Made by a program: the position numbers and the translations under genes
Assembly: GCA_015256915.3 (NCBI GenBank)
Contig: CP076101.2
Coordinates: 330,001-362,000 of the forward strand
DNA length: 32,000 bases
From: Candidatus Saccharimonas sp.
Lineage (GTDB): Bacteria > Patescibacteriota > Saccharimonadia > Saccharimonadales > Saccharimonadaceae
Reading direction: 5' to 3'
Part shown: positions 1 through 32,000 of the stretch, in pieces
How the letters are laid out: each line of letters opens with the position of its first letter
How positions within the stretch are numbered: position 1 is the first letter of the stretch
Notes under the pieces: model-generated
Database searches by the model: none
What the model was told of the DNA's origin: nothing
The model's input: the letters and a program-made list of their open reading frames with translations, nothing else

Positions 1-1296
1 ACTTTTCTTAACAATAGCAAAGAAGAATCTATCGTTTTCGGTGCTCCTGAATTTATTCTAAAAAACCTTTCAAAAGATAGTAAATCTGAAAGTATTTCGA
101 AAAAAATCGACAATTTAGCGTCTCAGGGCTTGCGAGTTTTACTTCTAGCAAAATTTCAAAAATCTGGCAAAATTTCAAAACTTCTCGAAAGCGAAAAACT
201 TGAGCCAATTGCAATAATTACACTTAAAAATACCCTGAGACCAAATGTTCAAGAAACCGTTAGTTTTTTGCAAAATCGTGGCGTTTCAATTCGTGTAATT
301 TCCGGAGATAATCCACGAACTGTGAGTTTTATTGCTCTTGAGGCCGGAATTAAAAATGCTGAAAAATACATAACTGGCGCAGAACTTGCTAATCTTTCGA
401 AAAAAGACTTCGAAAAGTCTGTTCTTGAAAATACAATTTTTGCACGAGTCTTGCCTGAACAAAAAGAGAAAATTATTGGTGTTTTTCAGAAAAACAAACT
501 ATATACAGGAATGATTGGCGATGGTGTAAATGACGCTCTTGCGATTAAAAAATCAGATTTGGGAATTTCTATGTTTGATGGCGCTCCTGCAACTCGCCGT
601 GTGGCAGATTTAGTTTTAATGGATAATTCTTTCACTTCTCTACCAAGTGGCGTGAAGGTTGGGAATAGAATTATGCTTTCGATTGAGATGATTGCGATTT
701 TGTTCTTCCATAAAATTATTCTTGGTGTAACAATTCTTTTTGCAACAATGCTTGCCGGCGTCAATTACCCATTCCTACCACGTCATATTACTTATATGAA
801 CTTTATTTTAGTGACAATGCCAACAGTTTTGACCACACTTTTTCCACCAATACCTAAAGCTAAAATTAACCCTAAGAACTTCTGGCGGGACACACTTTAT
901 TCAATTGCACCAGTAGCAATTTTAAGTGGTTTAGCAATTTCATTTATTTATATTAGTTTATATTTTAAAGTTGATGGCAGTCTCGCAAGTAAGCACATAA
1001 TGCATGGAATTTTAGCAACCGTTGTAATTGTAACCGCTTGGTTCGGTGTTTTTGCAACAATCTTGAGCGAAATATTCCTTGGCTCAAAGCCCTCAAAAAA
1101 TAACAAAATTCGTAGAACAATATATATTATTGGAACTTTAATTTTCACTGGTGTAATTTTTAGCGCTCCGATCTTACGTGAATTTTTCGAATTTAACTTG
1201 CCAAACATTAGTCAATTCTGGTTTATTTGCTCAGTGATTATTCTTGTTTCAGTTATCCAGTTATTTATTGCTTCAAGCAGATCTAAAAATAAATAG
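1..1296 (+). CDS. P-type (HAD-IC) cation-transporting ATPase, C-terminal part; 5' end lies outside the window
   Basis: Frame 1 is open from base 1, so the track Met at 130 is internal. GDGVNDALAIKKSDLGISM matches the P-type ATPase GDGxND hinge signature and is followed by several hydrophobic TM segments. Confidence 0.85.
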   Translation, partial: TFLNNSKEESIVFGAPEFILKNLSKDSKSESISKKIDNLASQGLRVLLLAKFQKSGKISKLLESEKLEPIAIITLKNTLRPNVQETVSFLQNRGVSIRVISGDNPRTVSFIALEAGIKNAEKYITGAELANLSKKDFEKSVLENTIFARVLPEQKEKIIGVFQKNKLYTGMIGDGVNDALAIKKSDLGISMFDGAPATRRVADLVLMDNSFTSLPSGVKVGNRIMLSIEMIAILFFHKIILGVTILFATMLAGVNYPFLPRHITYMNFILVTMPTVLTTLFPPIPKAKINPKNFWRDTLYSIAPVAILSGLAISFIYISLYFKVDGSLASKHIMHGILATVVIVTAWFGVFATILSEIFLGSKPSKNNKIRRTIYIIGTLIFTGVIFSAPILREFFEFNLPNISQFWFICSVIILVSVIQLFIASSRSKNK

Positions 1297-1320
1297 TCTC
1301 TCGGGAGGCTATTTTTATTA
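1295..1320 (+). terminator. intrinsic terminator after the ATPase gene
   Basis: AGTCTC-TCGG-GAGGCT hairpin (one G.U pair) followed by ATTTTTATTATTT. Confidence 0.55.
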
Positions 1321-1377
1321 TTTCGAAAAGCCAGCTATCACTAGTTCTTAGATTTTAAACAACTCTCTTTAGGAAGT

Positions 1378-1407
1378 AAAAATAAAATCAGGTCATTAAG
1401 CCTGATT
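1378..1407 (-). terminator. intrinsic terminator after the TPR gene
   Basis: On the minus strand, AATCAGG-CTTAATGA-CCTGATT starts right after the stop codon and is followed by TTATTTTT. Confidence 0.55.
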
Positions 1408-2076
1408 TTACATTGCAATTTTTTTGGTTGAAATTGATTCATTAGAGATTCGGTTTTGTTTTATAACCCTTCTGTTATCTTTTAACAACTCCAATCTATC
1501 TTTAATTTCTTTTGCTTTTTCTATATTTTCAACTTTAAGATAGAGCGCACCGAGAGTTCGTAAAGTTTGAGGTCTTTCGTCAAGTTCTATAGCCTTTTCT
1601 AGTGCTGAAATCGCCAATTTATCTTTTCCCATTTTTTCAAGAGCTCGGGCGTAAGCAATATATCGAGTCGGCACAGAATCTTCAATTTCTATAGCTTGTT
1701 CAAATGCTAGGGCAGCTTTTTGATAATTCTCGGTTTCAAGATAGATTAAGCCAACGTTATGAAGACTCGATGCGCTACTTTCTAAGCTTTGAGCAATTTC
1801 GAAACATTCAATAGCATCGTCAAACTTCTTTTGGCCCGCATATATTATCCCTAAACGGTTATATGCCGTAGCATTTCTTTCATCAAATCGCAAAATTGTT
1901 AATAAAACTTTCTCTGCTCGCAAATATTTTTTATCAATAATTGCCTCTTGCGCTACACGCCACAGCTTATCAATTTTATTCGCAAAATTATCTGGTAGGG
2001 CATTTTTTGTTAATTTTTCAGGATTTTTTAGAAAAACATAAGCACTAAGAACAATAATTAAAATCAAAACTAACAT
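1408..2076 (-). CDS. membrane-anchored tetratricopeptide (TPR) repeat protein
   Basis: N-terminal hydrophobic helix, then repeated 34-aa A/Y/G-pattern units (for example YNRLGIIYAGQKKFDDAIECFEIA and HNVGLIYLETENYQKAALAFEQAI). Confidence 0.7.
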   Translation of the reverse strand: MLVLILIIVLSAYVFLKNPEKLTKNALPDNFANKIDKLWRVAQEAIIDKKYLRAEKVLLTILRFDERNATAYNRLGIIYAGQKKFDDAIECFEIAQSLESSASSLHNVGLIYLETENYQKAALAFEQAIEIEDSVPTRYIAYARALEKMGKDKLAISALEKAIELDERPQTLRTLGALYLKVENIEKAKEIKDRLELLKDNRRVIKQNRISNESISTKKIAM

Positions 2077-2084
2077 ACCAATAT

Positions 2085-2114
2085 ATTATAGCATAGAAAT
2101 CAGCATTTTAGCAA
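2085..2114 (-). promoter_or_regulatory. sigma70-type promoter 8 nt upstream of the TPR gene ATG (near-leaderless)
   Basis: Minus strand reads TTGCTA-18 nt-TGcTATAAT, then ATATTGGT, then ATG. There is no SD. Confidence 0.5.
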
Positions 2115-2117
2115 ATT

Positions 2118-2909
2118 TTAGCCAATAATTAAATCAAGCAGAACCAACTTGATATTTCCATTTTTAGAGATCCTATCATAAGCTCTAAGAATTTTCTTTG
2201 CCGTTGTTGCTCCTTTTTTTGGATTTTGAGCAAAAGTTTGGTCAACCATTTTAAGCAAAATTTCTAAAAACTTTAGAATATCATTTCTTTCCAGTTTTAA
2301 ATCTTTTACAATTAATATTTTTTCAAATTTCGAACCCAAAAACCACCTTTTTGCAAATTCAGCAATCTCCATCTGTTCATTAAAATATTTTTTACTGTTC
2401 AAAAGTTTATCAATTTCACCAGGTAAACCATTCGCCATAAATAGAATTTTTTTCTTATCATCTTCACTCAATTTTGATTTTTGCAGCATCTTAATCGAAT
2501 CAATTTCCGATATTGGCGGAATTCGTAAAATCTGCGCTCGTGAAAGTATAGTCTTTTCGAAGGCATTCTTATTTTCAGTCAAAAGCACAAAAGATGTATT
2601 AGCATTTGGTTCTTCAAAAAGCTTCAAGAATTTATTTTGCGCAGATTCATTCATTTTTTCAGCATTCATCAATACGAAACAACGTTTTTTTACACTTTTT
2701 ACATTTGCTTTTTGCTGTAAAAATTCAATATCTTCAACATTGATAATTTCAGTTTTTTGCGCACCGTGAATAGTTGGCCTGAATTCAATTATTTGAATAT
2801 CTTTCAAAAATTTTAACTTTTTTAGAGCAAATTCAAAACCGAACCCACGAGGGATTTCCACAATCGTTGCATGCGAATTTAAAATTATATTTTCAAAGAA
2901 ATCTTTCAT
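2118..2909 (-). CDS. holB: DNA polymerase III delta-prime subunit-like (clamp-loader AAA+)
   Basis: FLKLFEEPNANTSFVLLTENKNAFEKTILSRAQILRIPPIS matches the delta-prime sensor and SRC-type region (KxLEEP...ILSR). Confidence 0.6.
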   Translation of the reverse strand: MKDFFENIILNSHATIVEIPRGFGFEFALKKLKFLKDIQIIEFRPTIHGAQKTEIINVEDIEFLQQKANVKSVKKRCFVLMNAEKMNESAQNKFLKLFEEPNANTSFVLLTENKNAFEKTILSRAQILRIPPISEIDSIKMLQKSKLSEDDKKKILFMANGLPGEIDKLLNSKKYFNEQMEIAEFAKRWFLGSKFEKILIVKDLKLERNDILKFLEILLKMVDQTFAQNPKKGATTAKKILRAYDRISKNGNIKLVLLDLIIG

Positions 2910-2911
2910 TT

Positions 2912-4093
2912 TTATAACTCAAAATTTTCAGGAGTTTCTGCTTCGAAAATCATTCTTTGCGATTCTTTTTCACCCTTTTTTGGTGGAATTGTAATCTCTA
3001 AACTTTGCGCATGCAAAAACATCCTATCTTCACTTTCAGATTTCGAAATATTTTTATCATAAACTCTATCGCCTAAAATTGGATGGTTTAGATAGCTTAA
3101 ATGAACACGCAATTGATGTGTTCGACCAGTTTTTGGCATAAGTTTTACTAACGAAAAATTTTCATTTTCCTTAAGAATTTCATATTTAGTTTGGGCTGGC
3201 TTTCCTTTTGCATGAATCATGAAAGTGCTCGGAGCTGAGCCGTTTCTCGCAATAGGTAGATCAATTAAGGCTTTTTTTGGATTCAAAACACCTTTAACGA
3301 TTGCCACATAGGTTTTTTTCGCAGTCCGTTCTGAAAATTGCTTTTGCAGCTTTTTAGCAGCTTCATCATTTTTTGCGCCAATTATTACACCGGAAGTCTC
3401 ACGGTCAAGCCTATGAATAATCCCAACACGATTTGTCCCTTTACCAAATTTTGCGCCACGACTTTCAAAAAAATCCGCAACAGTAAATTCATCATTCAAA
3501 GCACCTTTGCTATGCGTTAGAATTCCACGAGGCTTATTTATTACAATAACATTTTCATCTTCAAAAAGTATTGGAAAGTTGATTTTTTCAGCAGTTTTTT
3601 CTGGAATTTCGAGCTTAATCTTATCACCTTTTTCAATTGCATCTTTTGGTTTTTTCGCGATTCTTCCATTTACTTTTACAAAGCCATTTTTAATATATTT
3701 TTGAATTGTTGCTCGCGAAAATTCTGGGTAATTTTCAGTCAAATAAATATCGAGTCTTGTTTTTGAAGCAATATTTCGAAAGAGATAGATATCTTTACCT
3801 TCAAACGGTAAAGCAAAGCTCATCATTGAATCAAGTGGATTCTTAATTAATTCACCTTCAATATCACCAAAATGCTTTCGAAGAAGATCTTGAATATAGA
3901 ATTCATCATCTTCAGCCATTCCATCAACCACGATAAAAAACTTATGTTTGTTAAATTTAAAAGTGAAAATTTCTGAAAATTCATCGGCGGTAATCTTTTT
4001 TAGCTCTTCAACATCTCGCGGAACATTTTCTTCACCTGCAACTTGAAACTTTCGCAAAATTTTTAAAATATCACCAGAATTAAACTTTGCCAT
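2912..4093 (-). CDS. rluD: RluA/RluD-family 23S rRNA pseudouridine synthase with an S4 domain and a ~100-aa N-terminal extension
   Basis: HRLDRETSGVIIGAKN catalytic motif and an S4-like RLDIYLTE...VKVNGR segment. I prefer the ATG at 4093 (GGAG 6 nt upstream) over the track start at 4114. Confidence 0.8.
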   Translation of the reverse strand: MAKFNSGDILKILRKFQVAGEENVPRDVEELKKITADEFSEIFTFKFNKHKFFIVVDGMAEDDEFYIQDLLRKHFGDIEGELIKNPLDSMMSFALPFEGKDIYLFRNIASKTRLDIYLTENYPEFSRATIQKYIKNGFVKVNGRIAKKPKDAIEKGDKIKLEIPEKTAEKINFPILFEDENVIVINKPRGILTHSKGALNDEFTVADFFESRGAKFGKGTNRVGIIHRLDRETSGVIIGAKNDEAAKKLQKQFSERTAKKTYVAIVKGVLNPKKALIDLPIARNGSAPSTFMIHAKGKPAQTKYEILKENENFSLVKLMPKTGRTHQLRVHLSYLNHPILGDRVYDKNISKSESEDRMFLHAQSLEITIPPKKGEKESQRMIFEAETPENFEL

Positions 4094-5120
4094 TTTTATC
4101 TCCAAAATAATCAATCTTCATTGCTTGTTTAACTTCTTTAAGGGTTTGCGCTGCGATTTTTTCAGCCTTTAAGCTTCCTTTTCTAAGAATTTCATAAATT
4201 ATTTCAGGATTTTTTTCTAGCTCAGCTCGTTTTTCACGAATAGGCTTCAAAACTTTATCCATCTCTTCGATCAAGTATTTTTTAACCGCAACATCACCCA
4301 AGCCACCTTTTTGGTAGTGAGCTTTCATTTCAGCAACTTTCTCTTTATCTTCAGCAAAAATATCAAGATACGCAAAAACTACGTTTCCTTCAATCTTTCC
4401 AGGATCTTCAACCCGAATATGCTCAGGGTCGGTATACATTTTCATCACCTTCGCACGCATTTCTTCAAAAGAATCTGCCAGATAAATACCGTTGTTTAAG
4501 CTTTTGCTCATTTTAGCTTCCATTCCATTAATTCCCGGCAAGCGTCGTTCAATACCTTCTTTAGAAAGAATAACCTCCGGCTCAACAAGCGTATCTGTTT
4601 CATATGTTTGATTGAATGATCGAGAAATTTCGCGAGTCAGTTCAATCATTGGCATCTGGTCTTCACCAACTGGTACATGAGTTGCTTTAAAAGCCGTAAT
4701 ATCCGCCGCCTGCGAAATTGGGTAAAATACAAAACCGCTCGGTACGCCTTCACCGAAGTTTTTTTGCTTGATTTCAGTTTTAACGGTCGGGTTCCGCTCA
4801 AGGCGAGAAATCGAAACTAGGTTCGCATAATACATCGCAAGTTCTGGTAGTTGTGAGATTTGACTTTGCACAAAAATTGTAGTTTTCGAAGGGTCGATTC
4901 CTGCTGCTAAATAATCTAAAGCAACCTGCAAAACATTATTTCGAACTTTTTCAGGATTTTTTGCATTATCAGTTAAAGCTTGCGTGTCGGCAATCATAAT
5001 AAAAGTTTCATATTCGCCCGAATTCTGCAATTCCACGCGCTTTTTTAGTGAGCCAACATAATGACCAATATGCAATTTCCCAGTTGGTCGGTCGCCCGTT
5101 AAAATAACTTTTTTATTCAT
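4080..5120 (-). CDS. trpS: tryptophanyl-tRNA synthetase
   Basis: Class I HIGH motif (KLHIGHYVG), KMSKS motif, and TrpRS-like length and sequence. AAGGAG SD upstream. Confidence 0.9.
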   Translation of the reverse strand: MNKKVILTGDRPTGKLHIGHYVGSLKKRVELQNSGEYETFIMIADTQALTDNAKNPEKVRNNVLQVALDYLAAGIDPSKTTIFVQSQISQLPELAMYYANLVSISRLERNPTVKTEIKQKNFGEGVPSGFVFYPISQAADITAFKATHVPVGEDQMPMIELTREISRSFNQTYETDTLVEPEVILSKEGIERRLPGINGMEAKMSKSLNNGIYLADSFEEMRAKVMKMYTDPEHIRVEDPGKIEGNVVFAYLDIFAEDKEKVAEMKAHYQKGGLGDVAVKKYLIEEMDKVLKPIREKRAELEKNPEIIYEILRKGSLKAEKIAAQTLKEVKQAMKIDYFGDKNGKV

Positions 5121-5928
5121 ATTTCTCCTTTAAAATCTTATCAATACCTTTCGAAACCTGCTCAATCATTGACCTCGTCGGGTCGTGAGCACTCAAAACT
5201 CTTGAAGTTGTGATATTTTTATTGATCCTACCAAGTTTTCGAATATTTCGCCCAATCACAACAGGGTCAAAAACTCCATAAATAATTTTAGTTGGCGTTT
5301 TAGTTTTTGAAAGTACCGCGAAAGTATCTTGTTCAATTATTGCTTCTTTTAAAGATCTTCGAATCGGCCTAAATTGTTCTTGAGATTCAAATTTATCAAC
5401 ATCAACCGCACCAGTATCAATAACTGCATTCACGAATTTAATTGATTTTTCGGGCTTCTTAACGATTTTTTCATAACCTTTTTTTAAAATAGATTCCTGG
5501 ATTGTGCCGCGCGCTTCTTCTGGTGAATAAATTGGCGGTGAAAGTAGAAAAATTCCATCTACTACATTCGAATACTTTTTCGAAAATTCTGCCGCTACCA
5601 AAGATCCCATTGAATGCCCAACTAGGAAGAGCGGTTTTTTATATTTTTTCATTAGAAAAGTCATCCTTCGAATAGCTCTTGCTTGGACTCCAAGCTGTTG
5701 GGCGCCTGGCCATTTTGGTTTAGGAGATTCTCCGTGCCCAATTAGGTCAACCGCATAAATATCAAGTTCGCCCTCAATTTCACTTTCGGCTTTTTGCCAC
5801 ATTCCAGCATCACTCGCAATTCCATGAATAAAAATCACCACAGCTTTTGGGTTTTGAGACTTTCGCATTTTTGTAATATTTAATCTATATGGAATGCGTA
5901 AAGTTTTATGCAAAAATGAATCTAACAT
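5113..5928 (-). CDS. alpha/beta-fold hydrolase
   Basis: GHSMGS nucleophile elbow (GxSxG) and an HG oxyanion region (FIHGIASD). Confidence 0.7.
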   Translation of the reverse strand: MLDSFLHKTLRIPYRLNITKMRKSQNPKAVVIFIHGIASDAGMWQKAESEIEGELDIYAVDLIGHGESPKPKWPGAQQLGVQARAIRRMTFLMKKYKKPLFLVGHSMGSLVAAEFSKKYSNVVDGIFLLSPPIYSPEEARGTIQESILKKGYEKIVKKPEKSIKFVNAVIDTGAVDVDKFESQEQFRPIRRSLKEAIIEQDTFAVLSKTKTPTKIIYGVFDPVVIGRNIRKLGRINKNITTSRVLSAHDPTRSMIEQVSKGIDKILKEKYE

Positions 5929-5935
5929 TAAAAAT

Positions 5936-5944
5936 AGTATACCA
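5936..5944 (-). promoter_or_regulatory. extended -10 box 7 nt upstream of the hydrolase ATG (leaderless-type)
   Basis: Minus strand reads TGgTATACT, then ATTTTTA, then ATG. There is no SD. Confidence 0.4.
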
Positions 5945-6027
5945 TAAAATACACAAAAAATAAAGCTAAGCTATTTTTATAATAAATGCTAATTTAGTCC
6001 TACATATATAAATATTAAATAATTTAA

Positions 6028-6050
6028 AAGCCCCTCTAATGAGGGGGCTT
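6028..6050 (-). terminator. intrinsic terminator after the LPXTG gene (bidirectional shape)
   Basis: AAGCCCCTC-TAAT-GAGGGGGCTT hairpin flanked by A-rich and T-rich runs. Confidence 0.6.
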
Positions 6051-6075
6051 ATTTTAGTTGATAGACTGAGTTATT

Positions 6076-6666
6076 TTAAGACTTTTTTCGAAGCACAAAC
6101 CACGCCAGAGTAGCTGTTAGCAACCCTAGCAAGGTTATGCCAGCTGAATCTTTTTCACCAGTTTCTGGCAATTGAGGTTTATCAGGTTTAGCTGGATCTT
6201 TTTGATCTTTAGTTGGATCTGGCGTTGGCGCTGGATTTGGATCTGGCGTTGGCGCTGGAGTTGGATCTGGCGTTGGCGCTGGAGTTTCTTTCTTCTTGTA
6301 TTTTAGGTACATCTCAACGTACCCGTCTGATGCACCATAGAAATACGTGTTAGCTATCTCATGCGTCATGAGATAGCCCGGCATCCAATCAGGATGGGTG
6401 ACTATTTCATATCCATCAATATCTTTATAAATATTGATGCTTTCACCAGGGTTTATAACCCCAGTTTTAGGCGGTGCAATTTCTTGCCCCCCTCCAATAT
6501 GATACCTAATACGGTATTTCAATGGCTGTAGTGTTCCCATCTCTTCTGCTTTTACAATAGTAGCACCAAAAATAGGTGTATCAGTTAAAGCTGGAACAGT
6601 AACACCGAGAATAGCGACAGAGAGTAACGAAATACCAAGTTTGGTCCATTTATTAGTTTTCTTCAT
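6076..6666 (-). CDS. LPXTG cell-wall-anchored surface protein (signal peptide, small MucBP-like beta domain, Pro/Thr/Asp linker, LPETG sorting signal)
   Basis: C-terminal LPETG, then a hydrophobic stretch, then RKKS. N-terminal signal peptide. YRIRYHIGGGQEIAPPKTGVINPGESI...GYEIV resembles MucBP repeats (my inference). AAGGAGG SD. Confidence 0.85.
   Translation of the reverse strand: MKKTNKWTKLGISLLSVAILGVTVPALTDTPIFGATIVKAEEMGTLQPLKYRIRYHIGGGQEIAPPKTGVINPGESINIYKDIDGYEIVTHPDWMPGYLMTHEIANTYFYGASDGYVEMYLKYKKKETPAPTPDPTPAPTPDPNPAPTPDPTKDQKDPAKPDKPQLPETGEKDSAGITLLGLLTATLAWFVLRKKS
6213..6284. repeat. three tandem copies of a 24-bp unit inside the LPXTG gene
   Basis: TTGGATCTGGCGTTGGCGCTGGA(G/T) at 6213-6236, 6237-6260 and 6261-6284, with one substitution. 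It encodes the (PAPTPDP[TN])x3 linker. Confidence 0.9.
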
Positions 6667-6710
6667 ATTTTTTTCCTCCTTAGGAATTTTTATTTTTGCC
6701 TTTTAGACAT

Positions 6711-6804
6711 TATGCAACAAAAAGGCTTCCATCAAGACCACAAAAAGGAAAAATATGAGTAACCAAAACTCATTCTTCAACTTTTAATGTTCTTGATAGA
6801 AGCC
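6711..6804 (-). promoter_or_regulatory. long rod-like hairpin plus U5 in the 5' leader of the LPXTG gene (attenuator candidate)
   Basis: The 14-nt arms 6724-6737 and 6791-6804 pair perfectly on the minus-strand RNA, where the single non-Watson-Crick position is a G.U. On the plus strand that position is a C.A mismatch. Apical hairpin at 6755-6773. Followed on the minus strand by UUUUUGUUG. Confidence 0.45.
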
Positions 6805-6842
6805 TTACTATTTAGTTTTAAGCTATCTATCAACTGAGTAGT

Positions 6843-6871
6843 AGTTTATCATATTTTTATATATTTGTCAA
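6843..6871 (-). promoter_or_regulatory. promoter of the LPXTG gene (about 170-nt leader)
   Basis: Minus strand reads TTGACA-17 nt-TGaTAAACT. Confidence 0.5.
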
Positions 6872-6914
6872 TAGTTTTTAGTAATTTTATAAAAATCACA
6901 ATCTATCTCTTTTA

Positions 6915-6943
6915 TTGAAAGCTATTTCGAAAAGTGATAAAAT
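6915..6943 (+). promoter_or_regulatory. queA promoter placing +1 on the A of the ATG (leaderless)
   Basis: TTGAAA (6915-6920), 17 nt, TGaTAAAAT (6935-6943), then 6 nt, then ATG at 6950. There is no SD. Confidence 0.55.
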
Positions 6944-6949
6944 ATAAAA

Positions 6950-8083: not shown

Positions 8084-8110
8084 AGCGACTTAACGCTCTA
8101 TTTTACTTTC
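8082..8110. terminator. bidirectional terminator between queA and gpmA
   Basis: AGAGCG-ACTTAA-CGCTCT with T-rich tracts on both strands. Confidence 0.55.
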
Positions 8111-8117
8111 TCGAAAG

Positions 8118-8810: not shown

Positions 8811-8845
8811 TTTTCTCCTTTCAAAAATTCATTTTATCTATTTTA

Positions 8846-8874
8846 ATTTTAACACTTTCAAACCATTCCTTCAA
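8846..8874 (-). promoter_or_regulatory. gpmA promoter
   Basis: Minus strand reads TTGAAG-17 nt-TGtTAAAAT, followed by a short leader with an SD. Confidence 0.45.
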
Positions 8875-23867: not shown

Positions 23868-23890
23868 ATAAACTTTTAGCTCCTTACCTT

Positions 23891-24508: not shown

Positions 24509-24510
24509 AA

Positions 24511-24897: not shown

Positions 24898-24917
24898 TTT
24901 TCTATCCCTTTCCTAAA

Positions 24918-25304
24918 TCAAGTCTTGCTTGCTGCTTTTGGCTGTGCTCCACCAACGGCGATTGCGCGACCCTTTCGAGTTCGTGCATTCGTTCGTGTGC
25001 GCTGACCGTTTACAGGCAACCCTGATTTGTGTCGCATACCTTTATAGTTGTTAATGTCTTTTAGACGTTTAATATTATTTGCCACGAGGCGTTGCAGATC
25101 ACCTTCTACGGTATAATTATTATCAATAATTTCACGTAGTTTCTGTTCTTCAGCCTCGGTGAGATTTTTCACCCGAGTGGTCGGCTCAATATTAGCCGCC
25201 GCAAGGATGGTTCGCGAAGTTGTTTCACCAATACCATAAATGTAGGTAAGAGCAATCCAAACTTGCTTTTCTGCTGGGATTGTTACCCCTGCGATTCGAG
25301 CCAT
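24918..25304 (-). CDS. rpsM: 30S ribosomal protein S13
   Basis: [10 protein letters not shown]...ALTYIYGIG is typical of S13. Confidence 0.95.
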
Positions 25305-25306
25305 AC

Positions 25307-25423
25307 TTAACCCTGCCTTTGCTTATTCTTAGGTTTTTTCTTATTGATAACACGAAGTCGACCTTTTCGGCGAACTAAAATGTCATCTGGACTGATTTTT
25401 TTAACACTTGCACGAACTTTCAT
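25307..25423 (-). CDS. rpmJ: 50S ribosomal protein L36 (Cys-free form); missing from the ORF track
   Basis: Hand translation gives [38 protein letters not shown] (38 aa). It sits in the canonical infA-rpmJ-rpsM position. Confidence 0.9.
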
Positions 25424-25475
25424 AAGTGTATAAAAACTCCTTATCCTTTAGGTTTATATTATCTGCAAATCCCCA

Positions 25476-25507
25476 TAGAAATAATAAGCCATTTCGAAAG
25501 CTGGCTT
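25476..25507 (-). terminator. hairpin after infA (terminator or attenuator)
   Basis: AAGCCA / TGGCTT stem with a TTTCGAAA-containing loop, followed on the minus strand by UAUUAUUUCUA. Confidence 0.35.
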
Positions 25508-25524
25508 TTTCTATTTCGAACTTG

Positions 25525-25746
25525 CTAATCTCTTAGGCGGAAGCTGATTCTTCCCTTAGTAAGGTCATAAGGGGTCAACTCTACTTCAACCTTGTCGCCC
25601 GGCACCAATCGAATATAATGCTTTCGCATCTTTCCACTGATATGAGCGATGATTGTATGCCCATTCTGAAGTTCAACTTTAAACTGCGTGTTTGGCAAAG
25701 CCTCCACGATTCGTCCTTCCAATTTTATTACTTCCTTTTGAGCCAT
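25525..25746 (-). CDS. infA: translation initiation factor IF-1
   Basis: Full-length S1-like IF-1 ([48 protein letters not shown]). Confidence 0.95.
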
Positions 25747-25960
25747 AAATCTATACCATTCTACATTATACTACTCAAAAAGTCAAGCCCTTTTTATAAC
25801 TTTCTTAAAATTAAAAAGAACATTAAGTTATCAGTCTTCCTTTTTCTTTCGGAGATAATCGTAAATTTTAAATACTCTAGATCATATATTTCTAACGAGT
25901 TATTCTATCGATATTAAAAAAAACGATATTTTGCTTTGGCATATTTTCCACCCCTAAATT

Positions 25961-25996
25961 AAAAATGTACTACTTAATTGTAGTAGTACATTTTTA
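25961..25996. terminator. perfect bidirectional terminator after the sortase gene
   Basis: A5, then ATGTACTACT-TAATTGT-AGTAGTACAT (10-bp stem), then T5. Confidence 0.7.
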
Positions 25997-26011
25997 ATAT
26001 TTTTATTAATT

Positions 26012-26713
26012 TCAAGACTTTCTAACAGCCCTTAGCACCACTCGTTTATTGAAGGTATTTTTCGAATAATCCCAATCACCAACACATGTTATGATGTTCA
26101 ATCCTTCTTTTGAAGACTCAAATGAGTCAAGCATCGTGCTCATTCCAAATTTATTATTTTCATCATTAATTTCATCAACAGTCATTTCACGGACATCTTT
26201 AACTTCATAAGTTATTTTTTGTCCATCACCCCTTTCAACTATTATATCTGAACCTTTCAAAAGGTTGCCAAGATTTTCGAAAATGCCCCCTTTAGTTGGA
26301 CCTCCATTATGCCCATCTATGAGAAGTGCGCCTTTGGAGTTTCCCGGTAAGGCACTTTTCATATACCAACCAGCATCATGAATTGAAATTGGCGAATCGA
26401 GTTGGTTGGTATTTTTTATTAGTCCCAATTGAACAACACGAGCATTTGAGATTTTTAAGTTAGGGATTGATAAAAATCTCGGGAAAAGTGGATTAGGAAC
26501 TTTATAAGAGTTTTTTTTCTCTTCAGTAACTTCAGTTTCATCAACTTGGTGAGTTAATGCTGAGCCACCTGGAATTTTCTGCTGATTTTTTTTAGGCTGT
26601 AGAAAATTATTGTATACATAAACTCCAGTATAGCCTATTAAACAAACCCAACAAATTATAAGAACTACAGACAATATTTTTTTAGCTTTTTTTCGAGAAT
26701 TTTTAATCTTCAT
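26012..26713 (-). CDS. sortase (membrane-anchored cysteine transpeptidase)
   Basis: N-terminal TM helix, conserved His (LLIDGHNG), catalytic Cys in LNIITCVG (TLxTC-like), and a C-terminal Arg (RVVLRA). Confidence 0.8.
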   Translation of the reverse strand: MKIKNSRKKAKKILSVVLIICWVCLIGYTGVYVYNNFLQPKKNQQKIPGGSALTHQVDETEVTEEKKNSYKVPNPLFPRFLSIPNLKISNARVVQLGLIKNTNQLDSPISIHDAGWYMKSALPGNSKGALLIDGHNGGPTKGGIFENLGNLLKGSDIIVERGDGQKITYEVKDVREMTVDEINDENNKFGMSTMLDSFESSKEGLNIITCVGDWDYSKNTFNKRVVLRAVRKS

Positions 26714-26725
26714 TTAAAGATCTCT

Positions 26726-28132
26726 TTATTTGTAATCGTCGTAAGTAACCATCAACGCTCGCGAATTTATCTGTCTAATAGTCTCGAGAGCAACAGTTAC
26801 AATAATCAAGATTCCAGTTCCACCAATTGAAAGATTACTATTTTGAATTGAAGCTAGGTTATATAGGAGATAATCTGCAACAAATGGTAATAATGCAATC
26901 AGACCAAGAGCTACTGCACCAAACAAATTTAAGCGATTAACCACTTTATTTAAATAGTTTGCTGTCGAAATACCGGGGCGTATACCCTCAATAAATCCAC
27001 CTTGTTTTTGAAGATTGTCAGCGATTTCATTCGAGTTAAATACAATCGAAGTATAAAAATATGTAAATACCACGATTAAAACAAAATATACGGCCGGATA
27101 AATAAACGACTCAGGAGAAGATCCGGTAAAAGTTCCTTGATTTGGGGCAGAAAACCATTTAATTAAGTTTTCAGCCAATGAAACATTAACTTTAGCATTC
27201 TTCATCACCTGACCAATAAACGCAGGAAGACTCAAGAATGAAACAGCAAAAATTACTGGAATAACACCGGCAACAATAAGTTTTACTGGCAATATACTTT
27301 TTATTCCACCATAAGATGAATTTCCATGAACTCGTTTTGCATAATTAATAGTAATAACTCTTTGCGCTTCATTAATCTTAACTAAAATATAAAGAAGAAT
27401 TAAGCTTATTACTAGAAGTATCAATGTAACCATAAATGCAATACGATTAACAGGCAAAGTAAACCAACCGAAAACATCAAAAGCACCATCTTTAGTATCT
27501 GTAATTGAAGAAATTAGAGTTGCTAATGTTGTTGGTAGCTGTGAAATAATACCAGCAAAAATAACTAAGGAAATTCCATTTCCAACGCCTTTTTCTGTGA
27601 TAATTTCACCAATCCACATCAAAAGAACCGAACCGGCGACCATTGCAGTTACGGCAACAATCCAGTTAGACAAACTCATGCCTTTGAAGCCCGCAGAGTT
27701 AGATTGAAGAACGGTTGTCTGCAATATGAAAATATAAGCAATAGATTGAATGATTGCCAAAGGAATAGTTAAAATTCGCGTCCATTGATTAATCTTTCGT
27801 CGACCAGACTCGCCATCATTATTTAGCTCTTCTAGTGATGGGATAGCTTTTGTCATTAACTGAGTAATAATTGAGGCAGTAATAAATGGGCTTAGACCAA
27901 CAAGCATAATTGAAAAGCTTGTCAAAGCACCACCAGTTAGCAGATTGATAAATCCTCCTAAATCGGTGCTCTTAATAGCAGATTCAACAACCTCTTTCAA
28001 GTTTCCCGCATTAGCAAGAGGAATTGGCACATGTGCCAAGAATCTAAAAATTATTAAAAGACCAACCACTCCAAAGACACGCTTTTGCATATCTTTATTT
28101 TTCATCGATTTAACTATTATTTTCCAATTCAT
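26726..28132 (-). CDS. secY: preprotein translocase subunit SecY
   Basis: Full-length 10-TM SecY-like sequence in the canonical position upstream of infA. Confidence 0.93.
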   Translation of the reverse strand: MNWKIIVKSMKNKDMQKRVFGVVGLLIIFRFLAHVPIPLANAGNLKEVVESAIKSTDLGGFINLLTGGALTSFSIMLVGLSPFITASIITQLMTKAIPSLEELNNDGESGRRKINQWTRILTIPLAIIQSIAYIFILQTTVLQSNSAGFKGMSLSNWIVAVTAMVAGSVLLMWIGEIITEKGVGNGISLVIFAGIISQLPTTLATLISSITDTKDGAFDVFGWFTLPVNRIAFMVTLILLVISLILLYILVKINEAQRVITINYAKRVHGNSSYGGIKSILPVKLIVAGVIPVIFAVSFLSLPAFIGQVMKNAKVNVSLAENLIKWFSAPNQGTFTGSSPESFIYPAVYFVLIVVFTYFYTSIVFNSNEIADNLQKQGGFIEGIRPGISTANYLNKVVNRLNLFGAVALGLIALLPFVADYLLYNLASIQNSNLSIGGTGILIIVTVALETIRQINSRALMVTYDDYK

Positions 28133-28139
28133 AATAACT

Positions 28140-28168
28140 ATTTTACCATACTTTCAATCTTATTTAAA
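28140..28168 (-). promoter_or_regulatory. secY promoter with the -10 box 7 nt upstream of the ATG (leaderless-type)
   Basis: Minus strand reads TTTAAA-17 nt incl. TGg-TAAAAT, then AGTTATT, then ATG. There is no SD. Confidence 0.45.
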
Positions 28169-28178
28169 GATTCAATTC

Positions 28179-29006
28179 CTATTTAATTAAAAAATACCCA
28201 ACTATTAATATTGCTAATAAAATTCTATACCAACCAAACATTTGAAAATCATTATTCTTAAGATAGTTAACTAGAGACTTTATAACAAACATTGAAACGA
28301 CAAATGTTAAAATTAAGGCAACTGATAGGTAGAAAATCTCAGTATTAGAATATTTAAAGCCATGTTTAACAATCTTAAGCATACTCGAACCTAGCATGAT
28401 AGGAATGCCCATAAAAAATGAAAATTCTACTGCGATTTTTCTTGAAACTCCCGTCAATAGCCCACCAATTATTGTCGATCCACTTCGAGAAGTTCCAGGA
28501 ATAAGTGCTAAAATTTGGTATCCACCAATTTTAAGTGCATCCAAATAAGTCATCTCTCCAAAACTTTCAATTTTTGGCTTTATATTTTTATTTTTTCGAA
28601 ATTGCTCTATAACAATAAACAAAATACCGTAAACCATCAACATCGCTGAAATAACCCACATATTTTCGAAATATTTTTCTATAAAATTATTAAATAGTAT
28701 CCCCATAGCTCCTGCAGGAATTGCGCCAATTAATATTTTTTTCCATAATTCAATTGTATTCTTTTTTTCACGATGATTTTTGTGTTTATCAAAAGGATTT
28801 AGCTTAGACCAATAAGTAAAAATAACTGCCATTATAGCTCCGAGCTGAATAACAACCATAAATACAGATTTAAACTCACTCGAAAAATTAAGCTTAGTAA
28901 ATTCATCAAATAGTAGCATGTGGCCAGTGCTTGAAATAGGCAGCCATTCGGTAACACCTTCAATTATACTAACTATAACGATTTTAAATAATTCCAAAAT
29001 ATCCAT
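28179..29006 (-). CDS. uppP: undecaprenyl-diphosphate phosphatase (BacA/UppP)
   Basis: The EGVTEWLPISSTGH motif, PGTSRSG and a multi-TM profile are typical of UppP. Confidence 0.9.
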   Translation of the reverse strand: MDILELFKIVIVSIIEGVTEWLPISSTGHMLLFDEFTKLNFSSEFKSVFMVVIQLGAIMAVIFTYWSKLNPFDKHKNHREKKNTIELWKKILIGAIPAGAMGILFNNFIEKYFENMWVISAMLMVYGILFIVIEQFRKNKNIKPKIESFGEMTYLDALKIGGYQILALIPGTSRSGSTIIGGLLTGVSRKIAVEFSFFMGIPIMLGSSMLKIVKHGFKYSNTEIFYLSVALILTFVVSMFVIKSLVNYLKNNDFQMFGWYRILLAILIVGYFLIK

Positions 29007-29015
29007 AACTCTAAC

Positions 29016-29024
29016 ATTATATCA
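29016..29024 (-). promoter_or_regulatory. extended -10 box 9 nt upstream of the uppP ATG
   Basis: Minus strand reads TGaTATAAT, then GTTAGAGTT, then ATG. Confidence 0.4.
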
Positions 29025-29068
29025 TGCTTTTGGTTAAATTAAAATAACAACAAATTTGATTATTTTAG

Positions 29069-29100
29069 ACAAAATAAAGAACACCCCTCTTGGAGTGCTC
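29069..29100 (-). terminator. intrinsic terminator after tuf
   Basis: Minus strand GAGCACUCC-AAGA-GGGGUGUUC (two G.U pairs) followed by UUUAUUUU. Confidence 0.6.
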
Positions 29101-29116
29101 TTTGAATTATAAACTA

Positions 29117-30301
29117 TTATTTGATGATGTTTGTAACAACACCAGCACCAACAGTTCGTCCACCTTCACGGATAGCAAAGTTCAAACCTTGCTCCATGGC
29201 GATAGGTGCTTGCAATTTAACTTTGAAAGTTACATTGTCACCAGGCATAACCATTTCTTTATCAGCTGGAAGTTCAACTTCACCAGTAACGTCAGTTGTT
29301 CGGAAGTAGAATTGTGGTTTGTAACCCTTTGAGAATGGAGTGTGTCGTCCACCTTCATCTTTTTTCAAGATATAAACTTCAGCTTCAAATTCTGTGTGTG
29401 GAGTAATTGTGCCAGGAGCAGCAATAACTTGTCCACGTTCGATTTGATCTCGATCAATACCTCGAAGAAGAAGACCAGCGTTGTCACCTGCTTGACCTTG
29501 ATCAAGAGATTTTTTGAAAGCTTCAATACCTGTAACAACAGTTTTTTGTGAATCTTTCAAACCAACAATTTCAACTTCATCATTAAGTTTAACAACACCT
29601 TGTTCGATTCGTCCTGTAGCAACTGTACCACGACCTTTGATTGAGAAAACATCTTCGATAGGCATCAAGAATGGTTTATCCATATCGCGAACTGGTTCTT
29701 CAATGTATGTATCCATAGCATCAACCAATTCCATAATAGCGTCTTCGTATTTTTCATCACCTTCAAGAGCTTTAAGAGCTGAACCTTTGATGATTGGAGC
29801 ATTGTCGCCATCAAATCCGTTTGCTGAAAGAAGTTCACGAACATCCATTTCGATCAACTCAACAAGTTCTTCATCGGCCATATCCATTTTGTTCAAGAAA
29901 ACAACAATCTTAGGCACACCAACTTGTTTTGCCAAAAGAACGTGTTCACGAGTTTGTGGCATAGGACCATCTGTAGCTGCAATCACAAGAACAGCACCAT
30001 CAACCTGAGCAGCACCAGTGATCATGTTTTTAACATAGTCTGCGTGTCCAGGCATGTCAACGTGAGCATAGTGTCGGTTCTTTGATTCGTATTCTTGGTG
30101 AGAAGAAGCAATCGTAATACCACGAGCTTTTTCTTCTGGTGCGTTATCGATTTGGTCGTACGCAATTGGTTTGTTAACTTCTGATGGAAGTCGTTTTGCA
30201 AGAACTGCTGTGATAGCCGCAGTAAGAGTTGTTTTACCGTGGTCAACGTGTCCCATAGTACCAACGTTTACGTGTGGCTTTGAGCGGTCAAATTCTGCCA
30301 T
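29117..30301 (-). CDS. tuf: elongation factor Tu
   Basis: [26 protein letters not shown]... is a full-length EF-Tu. The start is set at the ATG at 30301 with an AAGGAG upstream; the track start at 30370 is an upstream extension. Confidence 0.95.
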
Positions 30302-30336
30302 TTTTAGAATTTCTCCTTTTATTAATAATATTATGC

Positions 30337-30380
30337 GCGTCGCACGAGTCACTGTTTTAGCAAAACACACGACGCGACGC
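30337..30380 (-). promoter_or_regulatory. GC-rich imperfect hairpin in the tuf 5' leader
   Basis: GCGTCGC (30337-30343) pairs with GCGACGC (30374-30380). Inner TGTTTT / AAAACA stem. Lies in an otherwise AT-rich spacer. Confidence 0.35.
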
Positions 30381-30388
30381 TACCTATA

Positions 30389-30417
30389 ATTATACCTAAT
30401 CTTCAATATTTTGTAAA
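30389..30417 (-). promoter_or_regulatory. tuf promoter
   Basis: Minus strand reads TTTACA-17 nt-TATAAT. Confidence 0.5.
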
Positions 30418-30432
30418 GAGGTTTTATAAAAA

Positions 30433-31512
30433 TTATTTTGAAACTTTATATAAACCCTCATGCCTCTGGTTTTCATAAATCAAAGTTGGAATACTCTTCG
30501 TCTTAATTTCTTCATTTACAACTCGAATATTCTCTTTAATACGCTCCTGGATTTCATTACTTTTAGCTTTTTTTGAAATTTCCTCAACTTGCGTATCTGA
30601 ATAACCCGCATCTTTAAGCCAGCTTTGCAAAATCTTTTCAGTTTCCTCCGCCGTTGTTGAAGTTTGATTTTCGCCATTAAACTTCTCTTGAAATAAAACT
30701 CCTTTTTCATCCTTTTCAGTAAAAATCTTCTCAATAATCATCCATTCAGCCGAAATCTTCTTACCATTTTCAGGTTGAATTCCTCGAACAGCTTCAAGAT
30801 ATTTCGAAATCAACTCAGAATTTTTAAACTTTCCATCAATCGGATATGGTAAGAGATGGGTTTTATGATTTTTAAAGAATCCGCTATTTTTCTGATTTAT
30901 AAATGAGCGCCGACAAACAATACAACCAGGGTCAAAAATATCAATCGCCACGCTCGCATCTTTCGAAACTTCATTAGAGAACTCACCACGATAAGTTGAA
31001 TTTTTTACAACATAATCTTGCGCATTCCAACTTCGAAACTTTGCAGGCATCGCATTAAAGATCTGCCCCCAATCTGTAAACCATGAAACTATTGGATTTT
31101 CAGTATTTCCGCCATCGATTGAGCAAGCCTCAGTTGAATTTAGTGCACAAGAAGCCGGCCGTTGAATATCACAAGTTCCAAAAACAAATAGCGCTAAGGC
31201 TGATTTAATTACTGTTAGAACCGACCAAATTGTGATTAGAACAATCAAGCCAGCCACCGCCTCAATCGCCCAAGAAACTGGTTTTACCCATTTTTTGTGC
31301 TTCACAATTACTTTTCGAAGAATTGAATTTTTAATTTCATCTTTAAAATTCGAATCGCAAGCACGCAAAGTTACTCTTCGTGAGAAACAATGCATTGATT
31401 TTTTAAACATTTGATTGATTGATTTCGCTTGTTTTTTAAAGCCAAAAAGCTTCAAAGCGGGTGTAAATAACCAAATAATTAGCAAAACTATAAACGCAGC
31501 AATACAAATCAT
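30433..31512 (-). CDS. membrane-anchored DsbA-family thiol:disulfide oxidoreductase
   Basis: Two N-terminal TM helices, a thioredoxin-fold CxxC (DPGCIVCRR), and a cis-Pro region near the C-terminus (IPTLIY). Confidence 0.65.
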   Translation of the reverse strand: MICIAAFIVLLIIWLFTPALKLFGFKKQAKSINQMFKKSMHCFSRRVTLRACDSNFKDEIKNSILRKVIVKHKKWVKPVSWAIEAVAGLIVLITIWSVLTVIKSALALFVFGTCDIQRPASCALNSTEACSIDGGNTENPIVSWFTDWGQIFNAMPAKFRSWNAQDYVVKNSTYRGEFSNEVSKDASVAIDIFDPGCIVCRRSFINQKNSGFFKNHKTHLLPYPIDGKFKNSELISKYLEAVRGIQPENGKKISAEWMIIEKIFTEKDEKGVLFQEKFNGENQTSTTAEETEKILQSWLKDAGYSDTQVEEISKKAKSNEIQERIKENIRVVNEEIKTKSIPTLIYENQRHEGLYKVSK

Positions 31513-32000
31513 TAGCTAAAAATCCTTTCCAAAACTTCTTTTAATTTTACAACATCAGCTTCAGTATTATGTAAGCCAATTGAAATTCGCACTAAGTGTG
31601 GCAGTTTTCGAACCTCTTTTAAATAGTAATGCGCGCAAAAATAACCGCTTCGCACCATAATTCCTTCATCGCTCAAAGCTTGTGCAATCAAGTGCGCATC
31701 AAGCTTATCGTGATAAAAACTAATCACAGGAGCCGGCTTTTTATTTAAAATATTAACGCCCTTTTGGTTTTTTAAAAACTCGAAAATATCTTTCGAAAAC
31801 TCATCAACTCGTGAAGTTTTCTTTTGCTTTTTCAGCCAATCAATCGCTGTTTTTAAAGCAATAATTTCGCCCCAAGCCTGCAAACCTGGCTCGAACAAAG
31901 CATGAATGTGCTCATCACCCAAAACTTCATAAGATTCTTTGGAGACACTTGAAACCATTCCACCACCAACAAAAGAGGTTTTTATAAATTTTGCAAAATC
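31512..32000 (-). CDS. class V aminotransferase / cysteine desulfurase (SufS/Csd-like), C-terminal part; 5' end outside the window
   Basis: The frame stays open to base 32000. FEPGLQAWGEIIALKTAIDWL and IRISIGLHNTEADV resemble the C-terminal domain of cysteine desulfurases. Its TAA overlaps the next ATG (TAATG). Confidence 0.7.
   Translation of the reverse strand, partial: DFAKFIKTSFVGGGMVSSVSKESYEVLGDEHIHALFEPGLQAWGEIIALKTAIDWLKKQKKTSRVDEFSKDIFEFLKNQKGVNILNKKPAPVISFYHDKLDAHLIAQALSDEGIMVRSGYFCAHYYLKEVRKLPHLVRISIGLHNTEADVVKLKEVLERIFS

Follow-up and report, generated by a model that had tools for sequence, protein, structure and literature searches.

The 32,000 nt stretch of Candidatus Saccharimonas sp. 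chromosome analysed here (assembly GCA_015256915.3, contig CP076101.2, positions 330,001 to 362,000; hereafter 'the window') raises the question of why one short palindrome, the octamer TTTCGAAA with its hexameric core TTCGAA, should recur so frequently within it. The word was counted by hand in a preliminary description of the window, and an exact recount returned the same totals of 59 TTCGAA hexamers, 26 of which extend to the full TTTCGAAA, with the coordinates given there (95, 395, 6925, 25492 and the rest) all matching. The G+C content, guessed to be around 35%, was measured as 36.15%, and the expectations from composition alone, previously put at about ten hexamers and one octamer in 32 kb, are 10.9 and 1.11 respectively, an observed to expected ratio (O/E) of 23.5 for the octamer. 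The 26 octamers are listed below, with the strand of the gene and the codons spelling the word given where available.

95-102: coding, in a P-type ATPase gene truncated at the left edge of the window
395-402: ATPase gene, CTT TCG AAA (L-S-K)
1321-1328: intergenic, in the interval between the ATPase and TPR genes
1797-1804: TPR gene (-), TGT TTC GAA ATT
3041-3048: rluD-like gene (-), ATT TCG AAA
3774-3781: rluD-like gene (-), TTT CGA AAT
5149-5156: alpha/beta hydrolase gene (-), GTT TCG AAA
5578-5585: alpha/beta hydrolase gene (-), TTT TCG AAA
6925-6932: intergenic, in the promoter-like spacer of queA
7318-7325: queA (+), AAT TTC GAA AAA
7786-7793: queA (+), ATT TTC GAA AAA
7839-7846: queA (+), ATT TCG AAA
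10355-10362: nrdD (-), AAT TTC GAA AAA
10913-10920: nrdD (-), AAT TTC GAA AAA
12147-12154: hypothetical 158-aa open reading frame (ORF) (-), CTT TCG AAA
12665-12672: hypothetical 99-aa ORF (-), GGT TTC GAA AAA
13143-13150: intergenic, immediately upstream of rpsJ
13818-13825: intergenic, no confident gene at the site
21849-21856: rpsI (-), ATT TCG AAA
25492-25499: intergenic, after infA, within a weak hairpin (loop)
26275-26282: sortase gene (-), ATT TTC GAA AAT
28594-28601: uppP (-), TTT CGA AAA
28664-28671: uppP (-), TAT TTC GAA AAT
30802-30809: hypothetical 359-aa gene (-), ATT TCG AAA
30961-30968: hypothetical 359-aa gene (-), GTT TCG AAA
31791-31798: cysteine desulfurase gene (-), TTT TCG AAA

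TTCGAA ranks first among all 6-mers of the window (z = 20.7), as does TTTCGAAA among all 8-mers (z = 33.5), and when all sixteen TTTNNAAA words were compared, the 26 instances of TTTCGAAA were set against no more than 12 of any other. Shuffling the window while preserving dinucleotides (n = 100) generated a mean of 2.66 octamers (sd 1.65, maximum 7), with none of the shuffles reaching 26; the octamer excess is consequently 9.8-fold relative to this null and 4.5-fold relative to codon-preserving shuffles. Building the word from its centre outwards, the number of TCGA tetramers equals the product of the half-sites (150 observed versus 149.8), and the excess appears with the flanking bases, at TTCGAA (59 versus 31.6) and then TTTCGAAA (26 versus 7.2). 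Both a codon-shuffled and a maximal-order Markov null had been proposed as checks in the preliminary description: the excess survives the former, but the latter predicts 25.8 octamers and hence an O/E of 1.0. This Markov model was discarded as uninformative, rather than taken as a refutation, because TTTCGAA, TTCGAAA and TTCGAA are themselves mostly copies of the motif, leaving the null blind to the signal; its place was taken by nulls based on half-sites, on dinucleotides and on preserved codons. Highly iterated palindromes are defined as octamers 15- to 300-fold over-represented, a range that includes the composition O/E both of the window and of the 35.7 kb of pooled core DNA described below, in which it is 33.

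That this bias acts on the DNA, rather than being a consequence of protein sequence or codon usage, is supported by protein-preserving shuffles and by context-specific codon choice in all three frames, in agreement with what had been argued from the letters alone. The word does, as claimed, appear in every reading frame (13, 17 and 20 hexamers), a further eight hexamers are intergenic, and its density is alike in coding and intergenic DNA. When synonymous codons were shuffled within 28 host genes, keeping both the protein and the codon usage of each gene, 19.0 +/- 3.7 TTCGAA were expected and 48 observed, with the corresponding values for TTTCGAAA being 4.5 +/- 1.9 and 20; none of 1000 shuffles attained the observed value of either hexamer or octamer. 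Over a third of the amino acid contexts in host genes able to encode TTCGAA do so (48/129, 37%). Where serine lies in the context T|Ser|AA, TCG is chosen in 40 of 74 cases (14.5 expected), with the distant synonyms AGT and AGC, two steps away, being depleted more than TCA; likewise, CGA is chosen in 26 of 36 instances of TT|Arg|A (12.6 expected), and 19 of 49 Phe-Glu dipeptides are spelled TTCGAA (9.4 expected). The counter-example ATT TCA AAA, noted previously near position 170, is present. Densities vary between genes, from 0 to 7.4 per kb in the block spanning positions 1-14500, and the most conserved genes (tuf, secY, gpmA and infA) contain no copies.

Two intergenic copies had been assigned to regulatory positions. 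Upstream of queA, the octamer at 6925-6932 does fall within the 17 nt spacer of a promoter-like site, TTGAAA-17-TAAAAT, at 6915-6943. The copy said to occupy a terminator loop after infA does lie in a hairpin loop, and the hairpin carries a U-rich tail but is weak and not significantly stable (z = -0.8). Separately, the ATPase gene contains a 14 bp direct repeat, GCAAAATTTCAAAA, twice within positions 150-181, 18 bp apart, and both copies include TTTCAAAA, a transition neighbour of the motif.

The enrichment was replicated in around 25 kb of newly examined chromosome flanking the window. A 240 kb ENA scaffold (L001; loci used for comparison are identified by such numbers) matches the window with 100% identity across 15 kb and was thus taken to represent the same genome, providing flanking sequence. 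In the left flank of 8.6 kb, where 2.9 hexamers and 0.32 octamers would be expected, 31 and 13 were counted, and another 10 kb that takes in the main ribosomal protein operon has 25 hexamers. Pooled core DNA has a hexamer O/E of 8.0, and densities in the core chromosome are approximately 2.7 hexamers and 1.2 octamers per kb. All the chromosome examined for this genome amounts to around 56 kb in one contiguous region, less than 10% of the genome.

One part of the window differs sharply in its complement of the word, separating two motif-rich blocks of core chromosome.

1-14500: core chromosome block 1, motif-rich, with 38 TTCGAA including 18 TTTCGAAA; genes for P-type ATPase (partial), TPR protein, holB, rluD-like, trpS, alpha/beta hydrolase, LPXTG protein, queA, gpmA, nrdD and rpsJ
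14302-14377 (+): tRNA-Thr (GGT), left border of the accessory island
14501-21660 (-): accessory island resembling a mobile genetic element (MGE), motif-poor, with two TTCGAA (14626 and 15297) and no octamers
21661-32000: core chromosome block 2, motif-rich, with 19 TTCGAA including eight octamers; genes for rpsI, rplM, rplQ, rpoA, rpsD, rpsK, rpsM, rpmJ, infA, sortase, secY, uppP, tuf, a 359-aa unknown protein and cysteine desulfurase (partial)

At host density, the island would be expected to harbour 16.4 hexamers and 7.5 octamers (Poisson p = 1e-5 and p = 6e-4, respectively), in agreement with the figure of about 16 hexamers, and the difference from the host, reported previously. Both of its hexamers lie inside the first island gene, leaving a motif-free gap of 6.55 kb, compared with a longest gap of 2.3 kb in host DNA. 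The lack of the word had been taken as marking the block as foreign, and the conclusion that it is strain-variable, MGE-like accessory DNA holds. Situated between tRNA-Thr and rpsI, the island encodes a 367-aa protein of unknown function, a 942-aa protein with an LPD3 polyvalent-protein domain, a restriction endonuclease (REase)-like protein with DUF3644 and EC042_2821, a 383-aa unknown protein and a CAP-domain protein. Strains L002, L008-L011, L013 and L015 either lack the island or carry a replacement, which is a type I restriction-modification (R-M) system in L002 and approximately 3 kb of other DNA in L015, and the large protein of the island has relatives of 79-97% identity in seven IMG/VR contigs, in which the O/E of TTCGAA is 0.5-3.

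Part of the deficit of the motif itself reflects fewer coding opportunities and a general avoidance of TCGA. The island offers 3.25 contexts per kb in which the motif could be encoded, and the host 6.13; codon shuffles predict just 1.5 hexamers within it. TCGA is found 11 times where 21.6 would be expected (O/E 0.47), and the O/E of TTCGAA is 0.85. Because the island has half the coding opportunities of the host and avoids TCGA, the cleaner contrast is the rate at which opportunities are realised, which is 2/22 (9%) in the island against 48/129 in the host (Fisher p = 0.013). Likewise, a strain-variable defence island past the right end of the window (L001:1-3900) has no motif sites at all.

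The tetranucleotide ACGT is also strongly avoided. Across this family of Saccharibacteria (the window, L001-L031 and L093-L124) its O/E is 0.2-0.56, and TACGTA is fully absent; the island retains a single ACGT site in 7.2 kb (O/E 0.04), and its IMG/VR relatives 4-9 where 25-46 would be expected. This pattern is the putative signature of a widespread ACGT-specific restriction system, and the avoidance of both TCGA and ACGT by the island suggests a mobile element shaped by restriction. Two strain-variable defence hotspots were observed, one downstream of rpsI (approximately 13.6-21.7 kb) and the other past the right end of the window (L001-L006:1-2600; L009:161-1996). Their contents differ between strains and include a type I R-M system (L002), HamA/helicase (also L002), a DpnII-type GATC R-M system with two methyltransferases (L005 and L006), an Eco57I/ResIII type IIG-like enzyme with AAA_13 (L001, the genome of the window itself) and a 611-aa C5-methyltransferase (L009).

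The genome is a metagenome-assembled genome (MAG) of a human-associated member of the Saccharibacteria (TM7), and its nearest named relative is Ca. Nanogingivalis (G6), with a SecY protein 79% identical; the exact SecY protein was found in hundreds of human-associated metagenome assemblies, and a scan of JGI metagenomes yielded the same syntenic region from related strains. The analysis of related genomes suggested by the preliminary description was conducted across 86 SecY-anchored loci, and a tree was constructed from eight proteins through neighbour joining (NJ). Strong enrichment recurs in the species cluster (SecY 94-100% identical), L023 (CAZVBN01; 80%) and L028 (JBAQCW01; 77%). It is missing from L025 (CAURWW010000003.1), despite a SecY identity of 80%, and from all loci at or below 72% identity, including around 50 more distant Saccharibacteria. 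The pattern is reversed in N. gingivitcus (L026; PRLK01), which avoids TCGA (O/E 0.29), as does L059 (O/E 0.32); this tetranucleotide is therefore raised in one lineage and lowered in a close relative. As L025 is sister to L023 and L028 in the tree, and L026 falls outside them, the distribution implies that the enrichment was either gained once and then lost, or gained twice; across lineages it is thus a patchy and labile trait. One-mismatch forms of TTTCGAAA are 2.25-fold in excess in L025, and its T|Ser|AA contexts contain more TCA than expected (10 versus 5.1), which has the appearance of an earlier enrichment now decayed.

The enriched relatives also display peculiarities of their own. L023 and L028, which have a G+C content of 41-42%, show a broader enrichment, with a TCGA O/E of 2.5-2.9 and a CpG value of 1.55; NTCGAA is raised for each 5' base, and TTTAAA is depleted (O/E 0.3-0.6). 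Their preferred word may be slightly different from that of the window species.

What unit is being enriched can be addressed through its flanks. When NTCGAN hexamers from what is termed species A are arranged as a matrix, the T...A cell contains 97 and every other cell no more than 18, yet given the frequency of TCGA the number of TTCGAA is near that anticipated from independent flanks in species A (97 versus 86), L023 (37 versus 38) and L028 (54 versus 56.5). The outer T and A are present in approximately 60-66% of hexamers in every lineage. An extended motif was considered, given a weak preference for A at -4 and T at +9 in species A and L029, but as this is missing from L023 and L028 it is not part of the word. 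The unit thus behaves as two additive half-sites, TCGAA(A), around a self-complementary core, and graded recognition resembling that described by a position weight matrix would give such near-independent flanks. Since TTTCGAAA is its own reverse complement it cannot carry orientation, ruling out for it a role as a strand-skewed word of the Chi, FtsK orienting polar sequence (KOPS) or SpoIIIE recognition sequence (SRS) type.

Individual sites turn over rapidly. Of the window sites that could be followed, 0/23 are kept in L023 and 3/23 in L028, compared with 25% of background 6-mers at approximately 76% identity, and retention in close strains is about that of the background. TCG and CGA codons inside the motif are no better conserved than the same codons outside it, and at depth the two combined are conserved less in the motif than elsewhere, at 0.12 versus 0.53 (p = 0.003) and 0.24 versus 0.52 (p = 0.036). 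The residues it overlaps are 39% identical to those of L030, compared with 66% for the rest of the same proteins (p = 1e-5), and the result is similar in five other relatives. Selection on specific sites, as for the highly iterated palindrome HIP1 of cyanobacteria, hence finds no support in either site retention or codon conservation. The tripeptide [FLIV]-S-K is found 41 times in species A, 2.4-fold more than the 17.3 expected, and is 2.0-fold in excess in L029, compared with 0.3- to 1.2-fold in relatives without enrichment. Imperfect forms are over-represented in a graded fashion, with the O/E of TTTCGAAA at zero, one, two and three mismatches being 33, 3.7, 1.56 and 1.27, and that of the controls L026 and L030+31 approximately 0-1.2. 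A change at a central position accounts for 38 of 105 one-mismatch forms.

The CpG-transition neighbours TTTGAA and TTCAAA make up 23 of 41 single-step alternatives at sites undergoing turnover. These neighbours are not depleted, having an O/E of 2.3-3.6 in enriched lineages and 0.9-1.9 in those without enrichment. With sites turning over, abundance must be continually replenished, and these data show that it is kept by directional, genome-wide replenishment wherever the sequence is free to change, and not through site conservation. The spacing of sites in host DNA is random (coefficient of variation (CV) 1.13 versus 0.99 +/- 0.10), with neither clustering nor even spacing detected there, and the possibility that close pairs of motifs form hairpins was rejected, as the number of pairs matches chance.

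Two classes of known genomic word resemble TTTCGAAA. HIP1 (GCGATCGC) and the alternate HIPs of cyanobacteria are likewise palindromic octamers with a restriction-type core, present at least about once per kb, in non-coding DNA as well as in each of the three frames, most degenerate at their outer positions and patchily distributed among lineages, with losses. They have been attributed to methylation-linked repair or to a methylation-dependent role in transformation (PMC4390886, PMC5861425, bioRxiv 10.1101/2024.09.10.611283, 10.64898/2026.06.24.733823). By contrast, TTTCGAAA is A/T-rich, CpG-centred and found in the phylum Patescibacteria; its sites are not more conserved than the background, and less so at depth, whereas the sites and codons of HIP1 exceed controls (PMC5861425); and central variants are common, whereas HIP1 disfavours deviation at positions 4 and 5 (PMC4390886). 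HIP1 is also periodic at a scale of 10-90 kb (PMC5861425). The second class comprises the uptake signal sequences (USS) of Pasteurellaceae and the DNA uptake sequences (DUS) of Neisseriaceae, similarly found in genes at about one per kb and in all frames (PMC2817400, PMC1939737, PMC3630211). The comparison with the density of these sequences made in the preliminary description was apt, and several of their published signatures are also reproduced here: doubled tripeptides, poorly conserved residues and absence from acquired DNA or non-homologous genes (PMC2817400), and graded over-representation of mismatched forms (PMC1939737). Lineage-specific variants and a naturally competent host phylum are further likenesses. 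Unlike TTTCGAAA, a perfect palindrome in which 6-8 bases are informative, USS and DUS lack palindromic symmetry, have a length of 9-12 bp, and are oriented and hundreds-fold over-represented, with DUS often forming inverted pairs in terminators. Preferential uptake of USS and DUS, and recognition of the latter by the ComP pilin, have been established experimentally.

Other precedents are less close. In Campylobacter jejuni, RAATTY, which as a short A/T-rich palindromic hexamer is also similar to the word described here, is methylated by CtsM to generate a self mark that is read through methylation state during transformation. RAATTY is abundant simply because the C. jejuni genome is A/T-rich; we know of no report of a strong codon-level drive upon it, nor of any TTCGAA methylation in Saccharibacteria. 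Very-short-patch (VSP) repair by the Dcm/Vsr system of Escherichia coli causes CCWGG to be over-represented as a side effect of correcting T:G mismatches where the position is CpG-like, although this effect is small (less than 2-fold) and depletes the deamination product. Turnover through a transition neighbour is shared with the present case, but the effect here is 8- to 33-fold and the neighbour is not depleted. TTCGAA itself is a type II restriction site of the AsuII/BstBI family, and TCGA one of the TaqI family. A restriction target would be avoided, as is the case for ACGT, and such avoidance of TTCGAA is evident neither in the host nor in the island and its IMG/VR relatives, making a cognate restriction enzyme unlikely. 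The Ssn/NTS system of Neisseria was set aside, as NTS is an oriented hairpin repeat of 28-30 bp almost never found within genes.

Taken with the absence of the word from acquired DNA, these likenesses lead us to propose tentatively, at somewhat short of an even chance, that TTTCGAAA is a 'self' word of the USS or HIP1 kind, upheld by a directional process acting across the genome and probably tied to natural transformation. Some component of transformation, involved in uptake, processing or recombination, would prefer DNA bearing the word, possibly through a methyl mark on the site, such that alleles creating it would be over-transmitted among conspecifics through molecular drive. Copies would then build up at synonymous positions, variable residues and in intergenic DNA; DNA entering the genome in another way, including the MGE island and defence islands, would lack them, and a lineage losing the recognising component would decay through CpG transitions. 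This proposal draws on the enrichment at the DNA level, its replication in new chromosome, turnover, the signatures of uptake sequences, additive flanks and patchiness, whereas a connection with transformation, the involvement of a receptor or methyltransferase, and any advantage in fitness are inferred. Transformation is favoured because the uptake-sequence signatures match, because Saccharibacteria are transformable in a ComEC-dependent manner, with competence genes conserved across the phylum (PMC10633639, PMC11665869), and because the analogous HIP1 raises natural transformation in a manner dependent on methylation (bioRxiv 10.1101/2024.09.10.611283) and has been put forward as a sequence for uptake or recognition.

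Several considerations weigh against this proposal. The approximately 56 kb examined yielded no competence gene, pilin or methyltransferase, nor any other candidate for a reader of the word. Regular expression scans of all the loci of the family, together with Pfam/NCBIfam annotation of the window, its two flanks and the further 10 kb, likewise revealed none of these genes common to the enriched lineages, but only strain-specific methyltransferases in defence islands. Known uptake sequences are, besides being longer and non-palindromic, far more enriched over expectation, and an A/T-rich 8-mer holds little information for discrimination. Cultivated Saccharibacteria have been transformed with synthetic DNA, with no uptake sequence reported (PMC10633639), and the oral G1 relative L080 is without enrichment. 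Furthermore, a pure mutation or repair bias, weaker on newly arrived DNA, would be expected to leave most of these patterns too, and 'genome-wide' is an extrapolation from one contiguous region.

The more specific idea that TTTCGAAA is a true DNA uptake or kin-recognition sequence, read by the competence machinery and perhaps through the mark of an orphan methyltransferase, is rather doubtful. It would be the first uptake sequence in the Patescibacteria and the first palindromic example, through which an epibiont constantly exposed to the DNA of its host could favour its own kin in recombination. Disappearance of the word from a sister lineage and avoidance of TCGA elsewhere would then represent switches of 'dialect' or immunity, and donor DNA supplemented with the word would be expected to transform this still uncultivated or poorly tractable group more efficiently.

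Among the alternatives, the main rival is biased repair linked to a methyltransferase, whether an orphan or part of an R-M system, following either the model of Elhai for HIP or that of Vsr, whereby an associated mismatch-processing activity would resolve mismatches in near-cognate sites toward a methylatable TTCGAA or TCGA and the word would be a functionless by-product. We consider this possible, if on the unlikely side. As a palindrome the word has the classical type II form, and a patchy, labile distribution would suit a mobile methyltransferase gene, such genes being carried in cognate form by every cyanobacterium with a highly iterated palindrome (PMC4390886). TCGA-directed restriction is evident in the family, given the low O/E in L026, L059 and the island; gains and losses occur mostly through TTTGAA and TTCAAA; and turnover without site conservation is the prediction of neutral replenishment. 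However, those two hexamers are the very ones that repair of T:G to C:G should deplete, and the signature of VSP-type repair was rejected because they are not depleted. The two-step synonyms AGT and AGC are, moreover, the more strongly depleted in the T|Ser|AA context, TTCGAA is not avoided by the island or its IMG/VR relatives, and no shared methyltransferase was seen in the examined loci, which counts only weakly with less than 10% of the genome covered. The proposal that density is instead under selection, with the word a binding site for an abundant dimeric protein involved in nucleoid structure, segregation or as a strand or nicking signal for mismatch repair, is improbable. It would be in keeping with a palindrome of additive half-sites found at similar density in coding and intergenic DNA, with the modest length of the longest host gap and with the nucleoid-structure role proposed for HIP1 (PMC5861425). 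Yet as spacing is random, nothing points to selection for even coverage; no single site is conserved above background, unlike those of HIP1 (PMC5861425); L025 and N. gingivitcus manage without the motif; and no candidate protein was found in the region examined.

That the word is a passive by-product of composition, of codon or dipeptide usage, or of a signal in RNA is very improbable, and explanations of these kinds are effectively excluded. The maximal-order Markov null does expect the observed number, and A/T runs are generally over-represented in the window (AAAA O/E 2.1); a palindrome also reads the same in every transcript, such that its presence on both strands is compatible with a role in mRNA. 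Against this, the Markov agreement is an artefact of sub-words dominated by the motif, all 1000 of the protein- and codon-preserving shuffles were exceeded, TTTCGAAA greatly outnumbers the other TTTNNAAA words, enrichment extends to intergenic DNA, including a promoter spacer, and L025 and L026, with the same G+C content, lifestyle and orthologous genes, are without it.

A search of the literature found no mention of TTTCGAAA as an abundant genomic word, nor of TTCGAA in connection with Saccharibacteria, and no methylome from this group. TTTCGAAA is classified as a hyper-abundant 'self' word of the USS or HIP type, with a new sequence and in a new phylum. Few such words are known, and every one of them has proved instructive: it was through USS and DUS that self-biased uptake was recognised, and HIP1 is a puzzle of 30 years' standing that is now being tied to transformation. 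The present example would add a third such case, independent of the others, from an epibiont of the Candidate Phyla Radiation with a reduced genome. As close relatives have, have lost or avoid the word, its cause is directly testable through comparative genomics, and gene presence and absence across them could identify the effector. The word also splits core from accessory DNA in these MAGs, aiding binning and the calling of MGEs, and, if linked to transformation, could improve genetic tools for Saccharibacteria.

Some further features of the region were observed. The ribosomal protein super-operon is split and rearranged (window 12798-13112 and 21711-28132; L087:15890-17917; L102:13511-19972), with rpsJ standing alone and the remaining genes divided into separate blocks of rplC to rpsH, rplF-rplR-rpsE-rplO and secY-sortase-infA-rpmJ-rpsM-rpsK-rpsD-rpoA-rplQ-rplM-rpsI; secY is followed directly by the sortase gene, and rplC is preceded by a two-component system just upstream. 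A related species at approximately 81-88% nucleotide identity is itself rearranged (L110, L119, L121, L122 and L124 relative to L102), with the window segment at 6.9-14.3 kb (queA, gpmA, nrdD, rpsJ and the tRNA-Thr side) directly adjoining the region of the ABC transporter and ribosomal operon. The ABC-2 permease used as an anchor is unusually fast-evolving, with 38-77% amino acid identity set against 76-96% identity in the flanking DNA. Finally, two long ORFs overlap on opposite strands, at 11913-12389 (-) and 12028-12396 (+), the minus-strand ORF being without a family match.

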